DNA from: Candidatus Aenigmatarchaeota archaeon
Lineage (GTDB): Archaea; Aenigmatarchaeota; Aenigmatarchaeia; QMZP01; QMZT01
Direction: 5' to 3'
Length of the DNA stretch: 64,000 bases
Assembly (NCBI GenBank): GCA_963726265.1
Contig: CAVSBQ010000002.1
Span: forward strand, 928,001-992,000
The first letter of the stretch is position 1, and the number at the start of each line of letters is the position of its first letter. Positions 30,001 through 36,000 of the stretch are shown here, piece after piece. The position numbers are program-made.

Positions 30001-33000
30001 GCTCGGCATAAGCGGAGCGAAGACCATGGCGATAAACACGGACGCCAGGCATCTTGCGACTTCGAAGGCGCACGCGAAGTTCCTGCTAGGCAAGGATATC
30101 ACGCGCGGCCTCGGAGCGGGAGGCTACCCGGCGATAGGCAAGAAAGCCGCTGAAGAGAGCGAGCGCGACCTGCGCAAGATCCTGGAAGGGGTCGACATGC
30201 TGTTCCTCGTGGCCGGCATGGGCGGAGGAACCGGAACGGGCGCAGCGCCGGTCCTGGCAAGGATAGCGAAGGAGCAGGGCGCGATAGTGATAGCGAACGT
30301 GACCATGCCCTTCAAGGTCGAGGGCGCGAGGATGGGCAAGGCGGAAGACGGTTTATACAATCTTAGGCAGTATTGCGACACTGTTATAGCCATAGAGAAC
30401 GACCGCCTCCTGAGGATAGCGGGCAACTTCCCGCTGAAGCAGGCATTCTGCGTCGCGGACGACCTCGTGGCAGGCATGATAAAGGGGATAACGGAAACGA
30501 TTTCCATGCCTTCGCTGGTCAATCTCGACTACGCCGACGTGCGCGCGATAATGCATTCCGGCGGGGTCGCGACGGTCGGGTTCGGAGAGGCGGACTCGAA
30601 AGGCCGCGCCGAGAGCTGCATCGTAAGGGCCATGTCCAACCCGCTGCTGGACGTCGATTACCACGGCGGCACGGGCGCGCTTATCCACATCACGGGCGGG
30701 CCAGATCTCCGCCTGGACGAGGTGAGCCTGATAGGCGAATACGTGTCGAAGCAGCTGGACCCGGACGCGCAGGTCATATGGGGCGCCAGGATAGACCCGA
30801 GCTACGGCAACAAAATGAAAGTCATAACCATCGTGACGGGCGTCAAGTCGCCTTACATCATGGGCAAGTTCGGCTGCGAGAGGCATGCGGATTTGATGCC
30901 GGAGCGCAGCCTGCACGCGGAGCTTGGCATACCGCTGCTTGCGTAGAATCCCGGGAACGCACGGATGCTCAAGCCGGCAATCTGAGAAGCGCCAGGCAAG
31001 GCTTGCAGAAAGGGGAATATAGCGGGACAAGCGCAGCTCACCCCTCCGCCGTTTCGCTACCCATCCCTACCGCCTGCCTTTACTTTCTTTCATTTTCCGC
31101 TTTGTTTTTTTATGCAGGCCTGCCCAATTATTCCTCATGAAGGGCCAGCTTTTCATGGTCGCCATAGTTTTCCTCATAGGCATGGTCTTCGTCGTGCAGC
31201 AGGCGCTTTTCACATATTCATCCATCGACGTTTCCCAGCCCTTCAACGCGAGGGGCGGCGGCCTTTTCCGGGACATGGTCGGGATAGTCAACCAGACGAT
31301 TAAGGATACCTATTACTGCAACGAGACCAGGGACAGCTTCCAGGACAGGCTCGATGACATAAAGACTTTGTTTCTCGCAGAGCACGGCAGGGAATATTCC
31401 ATAGAGTTCACCTATTCCCTAAACTGCTCGGCCTGGTCCAATGCTCAGCCGTCGCCTTCGCCGCTGCGCATAACCATAAGCGTAACCAGCCGCGGCAGCG
31501 ACACCAGGGGGACGTTCGATTTTTACCACAAACAATAAAAGGGGGTCGCCACCAATAATAAAGCATGCTAGAACAAAACGAAAAACAGATTCTCGGCATT
31601 TTCGGCCAGCGCCTTCTCATCAGGAAGGACGAGCTCAGGTCCGTGCTGAACCAGAACGGCTTGAATGACGGCATCATGGTTGTCAACAGGCTTAGCGGGC
31701 TCGGCTACCTGAAAATGATAGAAGCCGTCGGGTCGCCATGCTACACGATAACCCAAGAGGGGCTTCGCGCCATCAAAAGCTGAAAACCCCTCTCACTTTC
31801 TTTTTTATTTCAAGCAAAACAAATCAGTTAATAGACAGCAGACCGACAGCCTGCTGCAGGCTGTCCTTCGAGACATCAGCCCCGTAGTCTAGTGGCCAAG
31901 GATACCAGGCTTTGGGTTCGCAAAGTCCAAAACTTTGAGCAGGCCTTGCCTGCCATGAAAGAAGAAACCTGGCGACGGCGGTTCAAATCCGCCCGGGGCT
32001 ATTCTCAAACTTCCTTGAGCTGCTCCCTGAACTCCTTCGCCTTCTCCTCGAGAATCTGGACTGCCTTTCCGACTATGTATTCGGGCCCGAGGCCTGAAAT
32101 GCTCTCGACCTTGAAGACGAATTTCGTGGCGTCGCCGATCACTTTCGCCTCGCCGCCGCTCGCGTCCTCGCACATCTTGCACTCATCGCATAAAAACGGT
32201 TCGGTAATCACGAGCTTCCTGTTTTTGGTCTCGATTATGCCCTTCGGGCAGGCGCTGGTTATCTTCTTGGCGTCCTCCGAACTCGCAGCCTCGAGCGCAG
32301 GCAGGTTGCTGTAGGAGACGTTCGCCGCCTGGAACTTGGCGTGCTCCCTGCCGGTTCCGAGCCTTGCCGTCGCCTCGAGCTTGAGGCGCTGCGCCTTGAG
32401 AAGCTTGACTATGGGGAAATCCGGCGAAGTCGGCTTGACAGCCTTGTTGGAAGACTTGAGGTCGGAAGAATAAACCATCAAAGGCCCCGTCTTATCGAGC
32501 GCGAAAAACACCTGGCATGATGGACAGCCTTTCCCCTCGCACTTGCATTCATTCTGCAAGTTGAACTTGTCCGGGTCGAACGTCAGGGGGAGCATGCCCA
32601 GCCTGTGCGCGATTATCTCGTCGAAAAGCGCGGACGTGTTGTCGTGGAACTCCGTGGCGTCGATAGTCATGTTCGGGATTTCTGCTATCATTATCCTGCG
32701 CAGGGTGTTGGCGAACGCGGCGTTCGTCCCCTCGAGAAGAAACCTGAAATTCTCTCCCTTCCTGCTGATGACCTTCATTTTCAAGCAACCACCTTCATGC
32801 CCTTTACACCTTTATTAAATAATAACTATAATTAAAGGAATTAGTGATATAAAAACTTTAAAGTATATAAACTTTAGCAAAGGGCAAAATCAGAAGCCGG
32901 CCGACATGGACGGAGTCTATGTCATGCGCTGGTCATGCGGGGGTACCCAAGCGGTCAACGGGGCTGGGCTAAGGTTCACGGCTTTGTCCGAAATCTAGCC

Positions 33001-36000
33001 CGAAGAGAGGCTTGTCCTCTATGATTAGATACCCAGTGGCTTAGTGCCTTCCAGGGTTCGAATCCCTGCTCCCGCATATGGATTTTTTTGACTTCTTGGA
33101 AGAGGCCAGGAAGCTGAAGCGCCTTAAGCGCACGGGCTGGGTCCTGAAAGGCGTGAAAGCGCCGGAAAGCGTCGCCGACCATTCTTTCATGCTGGCCGTT
33201 CTCGCTTATCTTTATTCTAAAAACCTGCATCTTGACACGGACAAGTGCGTGAAAATTGCGCTCGTCCATGACATAGGCGAGGCGTTCTCGGGCGACATTC
33301 CCGACCGCGTCAGGGACGAGGAGCGGAGCGTCCCTCTCGCGAGGAAAAGGGCATGGAAGCGAGAAGGCATGGAAAGGATGCTTTCGCTTCTTCCGGCTGC
33401 GGAGGCTAAAGAAGTCCGCGGCCTCTGGGAAGAGTTCACGGAAAGAAAAACGAAAGAAGCGCAACTGGTGAAGGACCTGGACAAGCTGGAGATGTGCATG
33501 CAGGCTTTGGAATATGCCAGGGCGGACAAAAACAAAAACAAGTTCGCGGAGTTCTTTGAGGACGGGAGAAAGAACATAAAAACGCCGGAGATAAGACGTA
33601 TCTTCGAAAAGGTGCGCGCTGATTTTAAGCTTATTGCCGAAAAAAACCGCGATGATATTTAACCGTCCGCAACCAAGATATTTGTATGGCAGCGCTCGAC
33701 CCCTATCTTGTTATAGGCCTGGCCGTTTTCGCAGTGGGGACCATCCTGCTGTGGAAAATGAAGTTCAAGCACTACCTCATTTTCTTCATGCTCGAGACCA
33801 GGCACGGCCTGAATTTCGTTGACAGGGTAGCGAGGCTTTCTCCGTCGTTCTGGAAGTTCTTCGGCGACATGGCAGTCGTCGTTTCGTTCGGCGGCTGCGG
33901 GGCGTATTACGTCGCGAGGCACAGGAACACGTGGCTCATAAACCTCCTGCTGGGCCTGTTCTGTCTATACTTCGTTTATGCGGCCTTCGGCCTTTTCGCA
34001 TCGCTCGCAGGCTTCGCGCTCCTTGCGGCAGGCGTTTTCGCGCTGCGCAAAAAGGAAAGGCCGCTCCTGCATTTCATCGCTTCTGCCGTGCTGATGGGCA
34101 TAGTCATGTTCGCGATATACCCCGGCTTTTCCAGCGTCGACCTTTTCAGACCTTTCGTGGCGCTGATAGTCGGCGTATTCGGCGTTCCTGCTTTTCTGAT
34201 AAGCATGCTTTTCTCCCAGGCCTCGAAGATACTCATCGAGCAGAGCACGATTCCCGGCGTATCGCCGCTGCTGCCGACGGTAAGCAGCGAAGGGCCGGGC
34301 TTCTTCTTCCCCGGGACCGGCATATTCATCCCGCTCTGGCAGGCCATAATAGCCATGATCTGCCTGCTGGTTCCTCACGAGTTCGCGCACGGCGTCGTGG
34401 CCCGCGCGCATAAGATAAGGCTCAAGTCCACAGGCGTTCTTACGGCGGGACCAGTCCCGGTCGGCGCGTTTGTCGAGCCGGACGAGAAGGCGATGAAGCT
34501 GCGCAGGAGCAGGGATAGGATGAGAGTATATGCGGTCGGTTCGTTCACCAACATCATAGTTGCGATAATATCCCTGCTGCTGCTGGCGAACGTCATGGCG
34601 CCGCTGCTGGATGTCATAACCGAGCCGACAGGCATGGAGGTGACGAACGTCCTCAACGCGACGCCTGCATACGGCGTGCTCCAGAAGGGCTACGTCATAA
34701 AGGAGATTAACGGCGTGCCCGTGACGGATGCGGCTTCGTTCAATGCGATAACCGCGGGCCTCAAGCCCGGCCAGGCCGTGGCTTTCGTGACGACGAATGG
34801 CACGTTCAACCTCACGCTTCTGCCGAGGCCCGACAACGCGAGCCGCGGCTACATAGGCATCGACCTGCAGGAGACGTTCGAGCTGAAGGGCGAGTTCAAG
34901 GACAAATACAGGCTGCAGGCGGACGCCGTGTTCTTCCTCACCCCGACGATATTCTGGGTGTTCTTCCTCAGCTTCAACATCGCGCTCGTGAACCTCCTTC
35001 CCATAATGCCGTTCGACGGCGGCAAGATGTTCGAGGAGATGATGCAGGAGTTCAGGGTGAAGAGGAAGCGCAAGGACATGATACTGAAGCTCGTGATAGC
35101 CCTGATACTCGCCCTGCTGCTAGTCAATGCGCTGCCGCTGCTAAAGCTCATATAGCCGGAGGCGCTAAAATAAAGCGTACGGATGCTCAGCATTCAAAAA
35201 GCGTTCAAAACAGTTCAAAGCAGAAATGATGACAGAGCGGAGGTGTTATGATGGAAAAAAGCGTCAACGTCCAGATAGACCACAGGGATGCGGGCTTCTT
35301 CTCGGATGCCGTCAGCATAATATACAACCCGTCGAAGTTCATACTCGACTTCAAGCAGAACACGCCGAGGATAGACCAGATACAGGACAAGCAGCAGCAG
35401 ACCATCGCGGTCAAACACAACGTCATAATCATGGACATCAAGTTCGCGAAAATCTTCCTCGAGACGCTGAAGAAGTCCGTGGCTGGCTTCGAGAAGAAAC
35501 ACGGCGAAATAAAGATGCCCAAGCTGCAAAGGAAAGCGGTCGAAAAGCCTGACGTGTTCACGGGCAAGGAAGAAGGGTATATAGGATAGAGCCTGAACCC
35601 TGCAACTTTTAGCTGGTTAGAATATAGAAGAATTTAGCCTGGGCTATAAAAGAAAAATAAAAAATGAACCTTTGTTTTTGGTTTTAACTGAGCTGTGAGC
35701 TTAATTAAAACTCAAGTATCTTTTCAGAGATGAATTTCTTTATCTCGTCTTCGTCCGGTACTGCAATAGATCTCTTGAATTTCTTCGTTCCGTCTGGAAG
35801 AAAGAATCCACGAGATATTGCTATGAACTCATTTTCCCCGGTGTCGGTCGTTGCTTTCTTTCTCGCGACTTCGAGGAAGTTGTTCCTACCGAATTTCACT
35901 TCTTCTGCTTTCACAGTTTCGAATGTTACGTTTGGCATATTTATCCCTCCGTTTATAGTTTAGTAACCTATATACTATATTATATATATATAAAGGTATC

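Follow-up and report, generated by a model that had tools for sequence, protein, structure and literature searches.

A tRNA-Leu gene with anticodon AAG takes the place of the usual archaeal tRNA-Leu(GAG) in an order of Aenigmatarchaeota

Decoding with an unmodified adenosine at the wobble position (A34) is known for the tRNA-Thr(AGU) of Mycoplasma capricolum and for mitochondrial tRNA-Arg(ACG). The A34 decoders of Mollicutes and organelles work in AT-rich systems in which U-ending codons are dominant, and Mollicutes that keep A34 unmodified in the absence of TadA have the A34 gene and a U34 partner but no G34 isoacceptor and no deaminase (PMC3711424). In bacteria, a study of Streptococcus pyogenes and Oenococcus oeni describes a tRNA-Leu(AAG) for the CUN box that an adapted TadA edits to IAG, with full I34 editing shown and the loop consensus YUAMGRA (PMC11472039). 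Eukaryotes have an AAG gene and no GAG gene, and their tRNA-Leu(IAG) requires the ADAT2/ADAT3 heterodimer, according to two further sources (PMC8879553, PMC8266599); reviews describe A34-type tRNA as absent from archaea. Here, we describe a tRNA-Leu(AAG) gene in a genome of Candidatus Aenigmatarchaeota (G000), a very small archaeon of symbiotic type, within a stretch of 64,000 nucleotides that was analysed as a whole (the window). Like the bacterial tRNA, it serves the CUN box as a leucine tRNA with A34 and has a loop that fits YUAMGRA; unlike it, the AAG tRNAs studied here are archaeal with bulge-helix-bulge introns, and G000 and most other carriers have no TadA-type gene. All four traits of the Mollicutes recur in G000, but this organism belongs to another domain of life, has a GC content of 52% and uses CUC more often than CUU. 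As in eukaryotes, the AAG gene is present and GAG is absent, but a homologue of ADAT2/ADAT3 is missing from G000.

The gene lies at 32937..33076 on the forward strand of the window (C2:960937-961076 in G000) and specifies a class II tRNA. It went undetected by ARAGORN at default settings and by the Rfam tRNA model; with introns allowed, ARAGORN reports tRNA-Leu(aag) with a 56-nt intron, and the call is supported by a hand parse, a pair check and identity to other contigs. According to the sequence and the pair check, exon 1 (32937..32974, +) comprises the 5' strands of the acceptor and anticodon stems, the D arm and the loop residues C32 U33 A34 A35 G36 G37, of which U33 and G37 fall at 32970 and 32974 in the hand parse; the anticodon AAG occupies 32971..32973 (+; A34 at 32971), as read from the sequence and from relatives whose gene has no intron at that site. 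The 56-nt intron (32975..33030, +) sits at the canonical 37/38 position and carries a bulge-helix-bulge motif, and exon 2 (33031..33076, +) contributes A38, the 3' strand of the anticodon stem, the long variable arm, the T arm and the 3' strand of the acceptor stem, ending with the discriminator A73; CCA is not encoded. The spliced anticodon loop is CUAAGGA, with anticodon AAG. Standard pairs are found at 30/30 positions of the combined cloverleaf and bulge-helix-bulge design (29 Watson-Crick and one G-U); the motif has a complete central helix (4/4: C32-G, U33-A, A34-U and A35-U), two 3-nt bulges (GG|U and AU|A) and a 3-bp inner helix. The minimum-energy structure of the 84-nt spliced product is a cloverleaf with a 7-bp acceptor stem, a 3-bp D stem, 5-bp anticodon and T stems and a long variable arm, and its T loop, UUCGAAU, together with A73, fits an archaeal class II tRNA-Leu. 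Before splicing, a different fold has the lowest energy: the pre-tRNA reaches -53.3 kcal/mol, versus -46.3 for the bulge-helix-bulge cloverleaf (a gap of 7 kcal/mol), with a competing helix in which GGGCUA pairs with UAGCCC of the intron. Two DNA contigs from separate studies, X1 (covering 32937-33034) and X2 (covering 32937-33077), match the gene without a difference; the locus is contained in none of the RNA runs. A possible archaeal TATA box, TATATAAA, lies at 32864..32871 (+), 66 nt 5' of the tRNA start, and a homologue of the splicing endonuclease is encoded in G000 at C2:199428-199904 (PF01974, 4.7e-20; within a 407-aa frame). ARAGORN, the hand parse and the 30 standard pairs bear out the preliminary description of a tRNA-Leu with A34 and a 56-nt canonical intron, and, judged from its sequence, 32937-33076 specifies a functional elongator tRNA-Leu whose gene contains an intron and whose anticodon is AAG.

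The AAG gene is not confined to G000. The loci that were fetched hold 20 AAG genes; 16 of them, from four families, are distinct after intron removal, and standard pairs fill 358 of the 368 stem cells of these 16 sequences. Double compensatory changes are seen in all four stems and in the variable arm: those of the acceptor stem affect 3:70 and 6:67, and the second and third anticodon-stem pairs appear as AU/UA/GC and GC/CG/AU, respectively. The anticodon and A73 are invariant (16/16), and the intron site varies by genus (none, D loop, 30/31, 37/38, variable arm or T loop). CUAAGGA is contiguous in relatives that have no intron there (L026, L123, L130, G071, G082 and G083), which confirms the contiguous loops reported earlier for G071 and G083. 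Together, the comparison indicates that the function of the AAG gene is under selection.

Across the order, at least 41 of the 91 species genomes carry an AAG gene, in some cases intron-free, and tRNA-Leu(GAG) was found in seven (for example G011, G033 and G034) with a pattern that also allows U32; no genome shows both. The source family shows AAG in 18 of 23 genomes and GAG in none, and, among the 86 rows listed from other orders of the class, A34 occurs in none and GAG in 38. The pattern count of the preliminary description was reproduced exactly (32 matches in 31 of the 91 genomes, with N = A in 12 and T in 20), but its statement that N is never G or C across the order did not stand, because the pattern GGCTNAGG demands C32 and the GAG genes of the order have U32. 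The tRNA-Leu(GAG) of the order and class resembles the AAG tRNA in its class II body and, in the genus of G011, in the anticodon stem (CACGG/CCGUG); it differs in having G34 rather than A34. Among the fetched genes, the loop is CUAAGGA in 15 of the 16 distinct AAG sequences, CUUAGGA in 15/15 UAG sequences and UUGAGGG in 7/7 GAG sequences, and AAG and GAG genes therefore differ at positions 32 and 38 as well. With C32/A38 in place of U32/G38, the loop looks as if it had been retuned to suit a weaker wobble base.

The two tRNAs also have neighbours in common. Upstream of the gene in the window lies RNA polymerase subunit D (Rpb3/RpoA-like; 32005..32784, -; Pfam PF01000 and PF01193), whose homologues adjoin Leu(AAG) at eight f1 loci and five f4 loci, and Leu(GAG) in G011. 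An HD-domain (YfbR-like) gene follows directly downstream (33078..33662, +; PF13023) and keeps this place in the genus as well as in G082; beyond it, an M50 peptidase gene (33686..35155, +; PF02163) has homologues near Leu(GAG) at five loci of f6 (L113, L114, L115, L116 and L119) and near Leu(AAG) at L019, L129, L131 and the f4 loci, so that f1, f4 and f6 are represented. Since AAG and GAG genes adjoin the same subunit D and M50 peptidase genes, tRNA-Leu(AAG) has taken over the position of the tRNA-Leu(GAG) that is usual in archaea in these 41 or more species genomes, and the central proposal of the preliminary description, an A34 tRNA-Leu in place of Leu(GAG), holds on the counts and the common neighbours alike.

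G000 itself has four Leu-type genes (UAA, CAA, AAG and UAG, the last at C2:1060339-1060488). The Leu-type 5' acceptor and D arm occurs at four loci only in a scan of the genome, and in a class II context scan for a fifth gene the AAG arm alone passes; neither these scans nor the tRNA census found a tRNA-Leu(GAG) gene in this genome, which is 88.37% complete, in agreement with the earlier account. tRNA-Leu(AAG) is thus the only CUY-dedicated leucine tRNA of G000. The leucine codons of this box over 1012 crude ORFs number 9611 CTG, 8421 CTC, 6391 CTT and 1065 CTA, the ranking given before.

The profiles PF00383 and PF14437 each match a single protein of G000, its sole CDA-fold protein (167 aa; 60852..61355, +). 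Its homologues are found in many bacteria and archaea at 48-60% identity, and its zinc motif, HAEQNA..PCKICAK as first described, fits HAE..PCxxC. Among the NCBIfam models, ComEB (TIGR02571) matches residues 23-160 at 7e-28, with 97 bits lying under the equivalog cut-off of 219, versus 2e-8 for TadA, which covers residues 110-141 only; among PDB entries, dCMP deaminases match at 3e-20 (2hvv) versus 3e-6 for TadA. This protein was therefore assigned to the dCMP-deaminase (ComEB) type and rejected as an A34 deaminase. As the preliminary description had proposed, the profile searches found no TadA/ADAT-type gene in G000, ADAT2 included; no ADAR/ADAT1-type domain was found in this genome either.

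We consider it probable, though by no means certain, that A34 of tRNA-Leu(AAG) stays unmodified. G000 has what such a decoder calls for: the A34 gene, a U34 tRNA for the same codon box and no wobble deaminase. Since the anticodon is not read by archaeal LeuRS, leucine identity would survive a change at position 34. The pre-tRNA would be cut at its canonical bulge-helix-bulge by the splicing endonuclease of G000 and then ligated, and LeuRS would charge the product through the long variable arm and A73. Unmodified A34 would form a Watson-Crick pair with the last base of CUU and would read CUC less well, through an A-C mismatch, and tRNA-Leu(UAG) would read CUA and CUG and probably help with CUC, because its U34 likely carries no Elp3-type modification; an indirect pointer to this is the absence of Elp3 from G000 and from 83 of the 91 genomes. 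One source likewise gives unmodified A34 its best pairing with U and a modest one with C (PMC11066159). Whether a genome has G34 or A34 appears to follow its GC content and hence the balance of CUU and CUC: GC ranges from 0.365 to 0.532 in 14 AAG genomes and from 0.488 to 0.569 in seven GAG genomes, a comparison of 21 related, non-independent genomes represented mostly by samples of 15-60 kb, and within one genus it is 0.569 in G011 (GAG) versus 0.465 and 0.478 in G007 and G012 (AAG). The U-ending codon is dominant in low-GC carriers (540 CUU and 108 CUC in G062; 648 and 237 in G028) but not in G000, where 8421 CUC face 6391 CUU. Thus, in G000 the commoner codon would be read by mismatch or by the UAG tRNA, and inosine would be a more comfortable explanation there.

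That A34 becomes inosine, with IAG reading CUU, CUC and CUA, is the less likely but still serious alternative; the enzyme would lie outside the known TadA/ADAT family in most carriers or be a sporadic TadA-like protein in a few. Besides the excess of CUC over CUU in G000, this reading draws on codon usage: CUC/CUU normalised to other boxes averages -0.40 (sd 0.47) in the 14 AAG genomes and -0.47 (sd 0.25) in the seven GAG genomes, and this lack of a difference, and hence of any codon-usage footprint of a U-preferring wobble base, is what a wobble base with good reading of C would give. A precedent exists in that archaea make inosine derivatives at tRNA position 57, for which we know of no identified enzyme. 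The mutual exclusion of AAG and GAG also fits, since an encoded A34 without a G34 isoacceptor is a trait of I34 tRNAs, and I34 and G34 tRNAs are described as mutually exclusive in reviews (PMC8879553); so does the loop, since YUAMGRA is the reported consensus for editing of tRNA-Leu(AAG) by the TadA of S. pyogenes (PMC11472039). By our classification, TadA/guanine-deaminase-like genes occur in three of the 41 carriers (G086, G088 and G077); the first two belong to the source genus, a point on which the earlier account needs correcting. These proteins, however, reach 70-83 bits where the cut-off is set at 150, and they match guanine deaminase as well as TadA; the matching G000 locus, contiguous and gap-free, has neither the gene nor the small island that carries it in G086 and G088. 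In addition, 16 of the 41 carriers have no match to PF00383 and hence no CDA-fold domain, including G052 (92% complete) and G062 (91%), and the A/G state tracks GC, which inosine would not require.

It is very unlikely that AAG is an extra isoacceptor and that a tRNA-Leu(GAG) lies in the 12% of G000 missing from the assembly, or is masked by unusual introns or split halves. The incomplete assembly leaves room for such a gene, several G000 tRNAs are missed by standard tools because of T-loop introns and multiple introns, and Ala UGC, Glu CUC and Arg UCU are among the expected tRNAs absent from the census. Nevertheless, the congeners G086 (91% complete) and G088 (90%) have the identical four leucine genes and no GAG, and G087 yielded three of the four in one search and the AAG gene in another; the family counts, the absence of any genome with both genes and the position of AAG at the GAG locus argue in the same direction. 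Least credible is a decaying or non-decoding AAG gene with tRNA-Leu(UAG) alone reading four CUN codons: the absence of Elp3 makes four-way reading by U34 plausible and the pre-tRNA prefers another fold, but the anticodon, A73 and all stems are kept with compensatory changes in the 16 distinct sequences, the bulge-helix-bulge motif is intact, and strict exclusion with GAG argues that the AAG gene does GAG's job.

The replacement of tRNA-Leu(GAG) spans 41 species, most of them without an enzyme known for editing A34. We hold it to be distinctly improbable that an enzyme outside the CDA/TadA/ADAT superfamily turns A34 of tRNA-Leu(AAG) into inosine or another modified base in archaea of this order. 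If this were true, wobble inosine would occur in all three domains of life and tRNA editing would involve a new enzyme class, for which phylogenetic profiling could start directly from the 41 AAG and seven GAG genomes.

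Passages in two reviews state that archaeal genomes have no tRNA genes with A34 and always use G34 (PMC11066159, PMC8879553). Our analysis contradicts this for a single codon box across a DPANN order, in which a tRNA-Leu gene with A34 (anticodon AAG) is a conserved, intron-bearing, positional replacement for tRNA-Leu(GAG) in 41 species, most of which lack a deaminase of known type. In the source genome, Candidatus Aenigmatarchaeota archaeon GCA_963726265.1 (G000), sequence parsing places this class II gene at window 32937-33076 on the plus strand, and a hand parse gave the acceptor strands GCGGGGG/CUCCCGC, a 3-bp D stem, the anticodon stem CUGGG/CCCAG, a long variable arm, the T arm CAGGG-UUCGAAU-CCCUG and discriminator A. 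A 56-nt intron (window 32975-33030) splits the anticodon loop after G37, with splice sites that by hand lie within a canonical bulge-helix-bulge (BHB): nucleotides 32-35 (C, U, A, A) form the 4/4 central helix with UUAG near the 3' end of the intron, and the bulges GG/U and AU/A are followed by a 3-bp inner helix. All 30 pairs of this cloverleaf-plus-BHB structure are standard, the minimum-energy fold of the spliced 84-nt tRNA is the cloverleaf, and G000 encodes a splicing endonuclease homologue (contig C2:199428-199904). With introns allowed, ARAGORN called tRNA-Leu(aag) with a 56-nt intron at C2:960936-961077; ARAGORN without introns and the Rfam tRNA model did not see the gene, but since a long intron and a long variable arm defeat such default detectors, these misses are not evidence against it. 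DNA contigs from two other studies showed zero differences, one over 32937-33034 and the other over 32937-33077, so that A34 is not an assembly error; a search of RNA data sets for this locus gave none. The gene given in the preliminary description was thus confirmed by ARAGORN, by the hand BHB parse and by two independent DNA contigs.

The proposed replacement of GAG by AAG was not only supported but strengthened, and it extends from one genome to the order. The earlier pattern count could be reproduced (32 matches in 31 of 91 genomes, 12 with A34 and 20 with T34), but the accompanying claim that G never occupies position 34 in the order was wrong: the pattern required C32, which made the absence of G34 an artefact. 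Wider searches, with longer patterns spanning whole genes and with a pattern allowing U32, found AAG genes in 41 of the 91 genomes (18 of the 23 in f1, the family of G000, and 8, 1 and 14 in families f4, f5 and f6, respectively) and GAG genes, with the loop UUGAGGG, in seven (G011 of f4; G024, G031, G033, G034, G051 and G063 of f6). In none of the 91 were both genes seen. Neither gene was seen in the remaining 43, where introns, divergent stems or gaps may be the cause. Outside the order, a listing of 86 entries for the class's remaining 280 genomes, with four from family f40 left out, had A34 in none and GAG in 38. In addition, the two genes share their neighbours. The RNA polymerase subunit D gene, which lies upstream of the window tRNA, adjoins Leu(AAG) in eight f1 and five f4 loci and also Leu(GAG) in G011, a congener of the AAG-bearing G007, G008 and G012; the M50 peptidase gene downstream of the window tRNA has homologues near Leu(AAG) in f1, f4 and f6, as well as near Leu(GAG) in f6 (loci L114, L115, L116 and L119) and in G011 (L113). 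These common neighbours make AAG and GAG positional counterparts.

Loop positions 32 and 38 vary jointly with position 34. Among the fetched genes, the loop was UUGAGGG in seven of seven GAG genes, CUAAGGA in 15 of 16 AAG genes and CUUAGGA in 15 of 15 UAG genes, so that the AAG loop has the same 32/38 context as the UAG loop. Judged from their loops, the AAG genes of G022 (UUAAGGG) and G072 (UUAAGGA) look like intermediates. Leu isoacceptors have body features in common within a lineage (for example, D-arm CCGAG versus CCAAG), and a tRNA tree would therefore group by lineage and not tell a GAG origin of AAG from a UAG origin.

CUC is more frequent than CUU in G000 (8421 versus 6391) and makes up about 29% of the leucine codons, of which CUG is the commonest. 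Elp3 is required for xm5U34-type modification. It is absent from G000 (best match 24 bits against a cut-off of 350, with four archaeal controls above the cut-off) and from 83 of the 91 genomes, being present in only eight (genus g6, families f2 and f3, and G050); Elp3-dependent modification of U34 is probably missing in most of the order. Because Elp3 is absent, it is plausible that U34 of tRNA-Leu(UAG) is not restricted and would help to read CUC. Codon-usage signals are mixed. The switch from G34 to A34 left no codon-usage footprint, the CUC/CUU log-odds relative to other boxes being -0.40 in 14 AAG genomes and -0.47 in seven GAG genomes, and GC content partly separates the groups (0.365-0.532 with AAG, 0.488-0.569 with GAG), in a sample of genomes related to each other and mostly covered over only 15-60 kb. 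Within the one genus, G011 (GAG) has a GC content of 0.569, against 0.465 and 0.478 in G007 and G012 (AAG), and in low-GC carriers CUU lies far above CUC (540 versus 108 in G062). A wobble base that follows GC agrees with the statement, in one review passage, that unmodified A has U as its best partner (PMC11066159), and also with simple mutation pressure acting on a site close to neutral; it does not require inosine. On balance, we lean towards an A34 that stays unmodified in tRNA-Leu(AAG).

Editing of A34 to inosine is the main alternative, and we regard it as less likely. The only CDA-fold gene of G000 (window 60852-61355) encodes a protein that resembles ComEB/dCMP deaminases throughout its length (7e-28; PDB 2hvv, 3e-20) and TadA only in the zinc-motif region (2e-8; 3e-6); by these similarities, it is an ordinary dCMP-deaminase homologue. 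As an A34 deaminase it was rejected, both because relatives sharing 48-60% identity with it are spread very widely over bacteria and archaea that have their own TadA or no A34 tRNA, and because it is absent from many AAG carriers. PF00383 was matched in 47 of the 91 genomes, and 16 of the 41 AAG carriers had no match, including G052 (92% complete) and G062 (91%). We classified 16 PF00383 matches of non-dCMP type by best family: TadA was best for six (G086, G088, G077, G057, G023 and G002), with scores of 70-83 bits, below the cut-off of 150, and the other ten comprised five RibD-like proteins, two ComEB-like proteins, two cytidine deaminases and one matching an anti-phage dCTP deaminase family only. 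In the congeners G086 and G088, a 163-aa TadA/guanine-deaminase-like gene lies in a small island (G086, C5:~645-2903, locus L213; G088, C5:~16800-18400, locus L214). For the G088 protein (HAEMVA..EPCPMC), the matches to TadA, guanine deaminase and guanosine deaminase are of similar strength (~1e-16 to 1e-20), and the specificity of this ORF is ambiguous. The island is missing in G000: the genes that flank it in the congeners are neighbours there (C2:1005741-1006124 and 1006494-1006745), ~370 bp apart on a contiguous stretch. Absent from G000 and found in only three of the 41 carriers, the ORF was rejected as a general editor. Thus, the earlier statement that TadA is lacking applies to G000 and to 38 of the 41 carriers, but not to all members of the genus. 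PF02137, the ADAR/ADAT1-type domain, had zero matches in G000.

That G000 hides a tRNA-Leu(GAG) gene has only a small probability. Introns are abundant in its tRNA genes, and those in the T loop conceal Ala CGC, Asp GUC, Gly CCC and Lys CUU from a T-arm scan; for this reason, Leu genes were searched in three ways. Only four loci have a Leu-type 5' acceptor strand and D arm; a second search used the T arm with matching acceptor strands; and a context-restricted anticodon-arm scan replaced loose scans, which were useless for their hundreds of chance matches (307 for GAG), and passed the AAG arm as the only one. None of the three found GAG, and together they gave only AAG, UAA (C2:264826-265006, minus strand), CAA (C2:413778-413926, minus strand) and UAG (C2:1060339-1060488, plus strand, outside the window; locus L216:40-189), all four parsed by hand, which bears out the reported lack of GAG. 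The same four genes occur in G086 (91% complete) and G088 (90%); in the congener G087, three of the four came from the longer-pattern search and the AAG gene from the original pattern. The remaining four-codon boxes of G000 retain G34 (Val GAC, Ala GGC, Gly GCC, Pro GGG, Thr GGU, Ser GGA and Arg GCG, assigned by hand).

A dead tRNA-Leu(AAG) gene likewise has little to recommend it. Twenty AAG genes were fetched, 16 of them distinct after intron removal, and 358 of their 368 stem cells hold standard pairs, the exceptions all lying in the T stem, a region for which the automatic T-loop intron removal was imprecise. Double compensatory changes affect many stem pairs, neither the anticodon nor A73 varies, and some genes (L026, L123 and L130) are intronless, so that their anticodon is fixed with no need to choose a splice site. 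One observation does not fit a simple picture: the unconstrained pre-tRNA fold, at -53.3 kcal/mol (z = -1.27), lies 7 kcal/mol below the BHB cloverleaf (-46.3) and pairs exon GGGCUA (window 32964-32969), the end of the anticodon stem plus loop, with its perfect complement UAGCCC in the intron (32996-33001). The segment UAGCCC is also kept in G086 and G088.

Two further tRNA genes lie within the window, namely tRNA-Gln(UUG) with an intron of ~51 nt (31878-32001, plus strand, assigned by hand; miscalled 'Stop (tta)' by ARAGORN) and an intron-containing tRNA-Ile(GAU) (10208-10327, minus strand). With introns allowed, ARAGORN misnames several genes, such as Leu(UAG) as Thr(agt) and Ala(GGC) as Leu(taa). 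By hand, tRNA-Ile(UAU) was recognized from the loop CTTATAA at C2:639851-639970 (minus strand); reading of AUA by such a tRNA is the rarer archaeal way, the alternative being a CAU tRNA with agmatidine. The introns of five G000 tRNA genes have in common a hairpin module, GC(A/G)GATTTCATC(C/T)GC (C1:13558, C2:184223, C2:278254 on the minus strand, C2:840780 and C2:488596 on the minus strand), located in the D loop of Thr CGU, the T loops of Gly CCC, Ala CGC and Asp GUC, and the anticodon loop of Cys GCA, which suggests that a single intron family spreads among tRNA genes.

The tRNA-Leu(UAG) gene of G000 contains two tandem anticodon cassettes, GGTATGGCCAA followed by GTTTAGG (UAG) and TATGGCTAA followed by GTTCAGG (CAG). 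Both have identical inner-helix, central-helix and bulge context at the 3' splice site of intron 1, and both use one common downstream splice partner, whose G pairs with U34 or C34. The cassette block is invariant save for Y/R changes in eight of eight fetched f1 genomes from four genera, where the neighbouring intron sequence varies freely. One gene may therefore yield both Leu(UAG) and Leu(CAG) by alternative BHB splicing, which would explain why no separate Leu(CAG) gene was found in G000 although CUG is its commonest leucine codon. Other families show other layouts of the dual-anticodon idea (L012, L014, L016, L017 and L024; L004, L005, L010, L018 and L021): in one, the 'intron' of the UAG gene holds a full second 5' strand of the anticodon stem together with a CAG loop (GGGGCTAGGTTCAGG), and another has a second half-loop, GCTCAGAA. 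Our literature search found no paper on a dual UAG/CAG product from one tRNA gene by alternative splicing.

An A34-for-G34 swap is also known from bacteria. One paper describes an adapted TadA that converts tRNA-Leu(AAG) to IAG in S. pyogenes, and states the same for O. oeni (PMC11472039); a passage of another treats Mollicutes after TadA loss as a model for life without wobble editing (PMC3711424). The archaeal order has the swap in common with both but belongs to another domain, has no such enzyme in most carriers and is of moderate GC content. Within the parts covered of a few papers, our literature search found no paper describing A34 tRNAs for DPANN or Micrarchaeota. Either modification outcome is informative: if A34 is unmodified, these archaea would be a natural cellular system that reads a major codon, CUC, without a Watson-Crick or G-type wobble partner, and if it is edited, they would contain an unknown wobble deaminase. 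In addition, single genera that include both A34 and G34 species, whose loops differ correspondingly at positions 32 and 38, provide matched natural pairs for testing how the loop is tuned to the wobble base.
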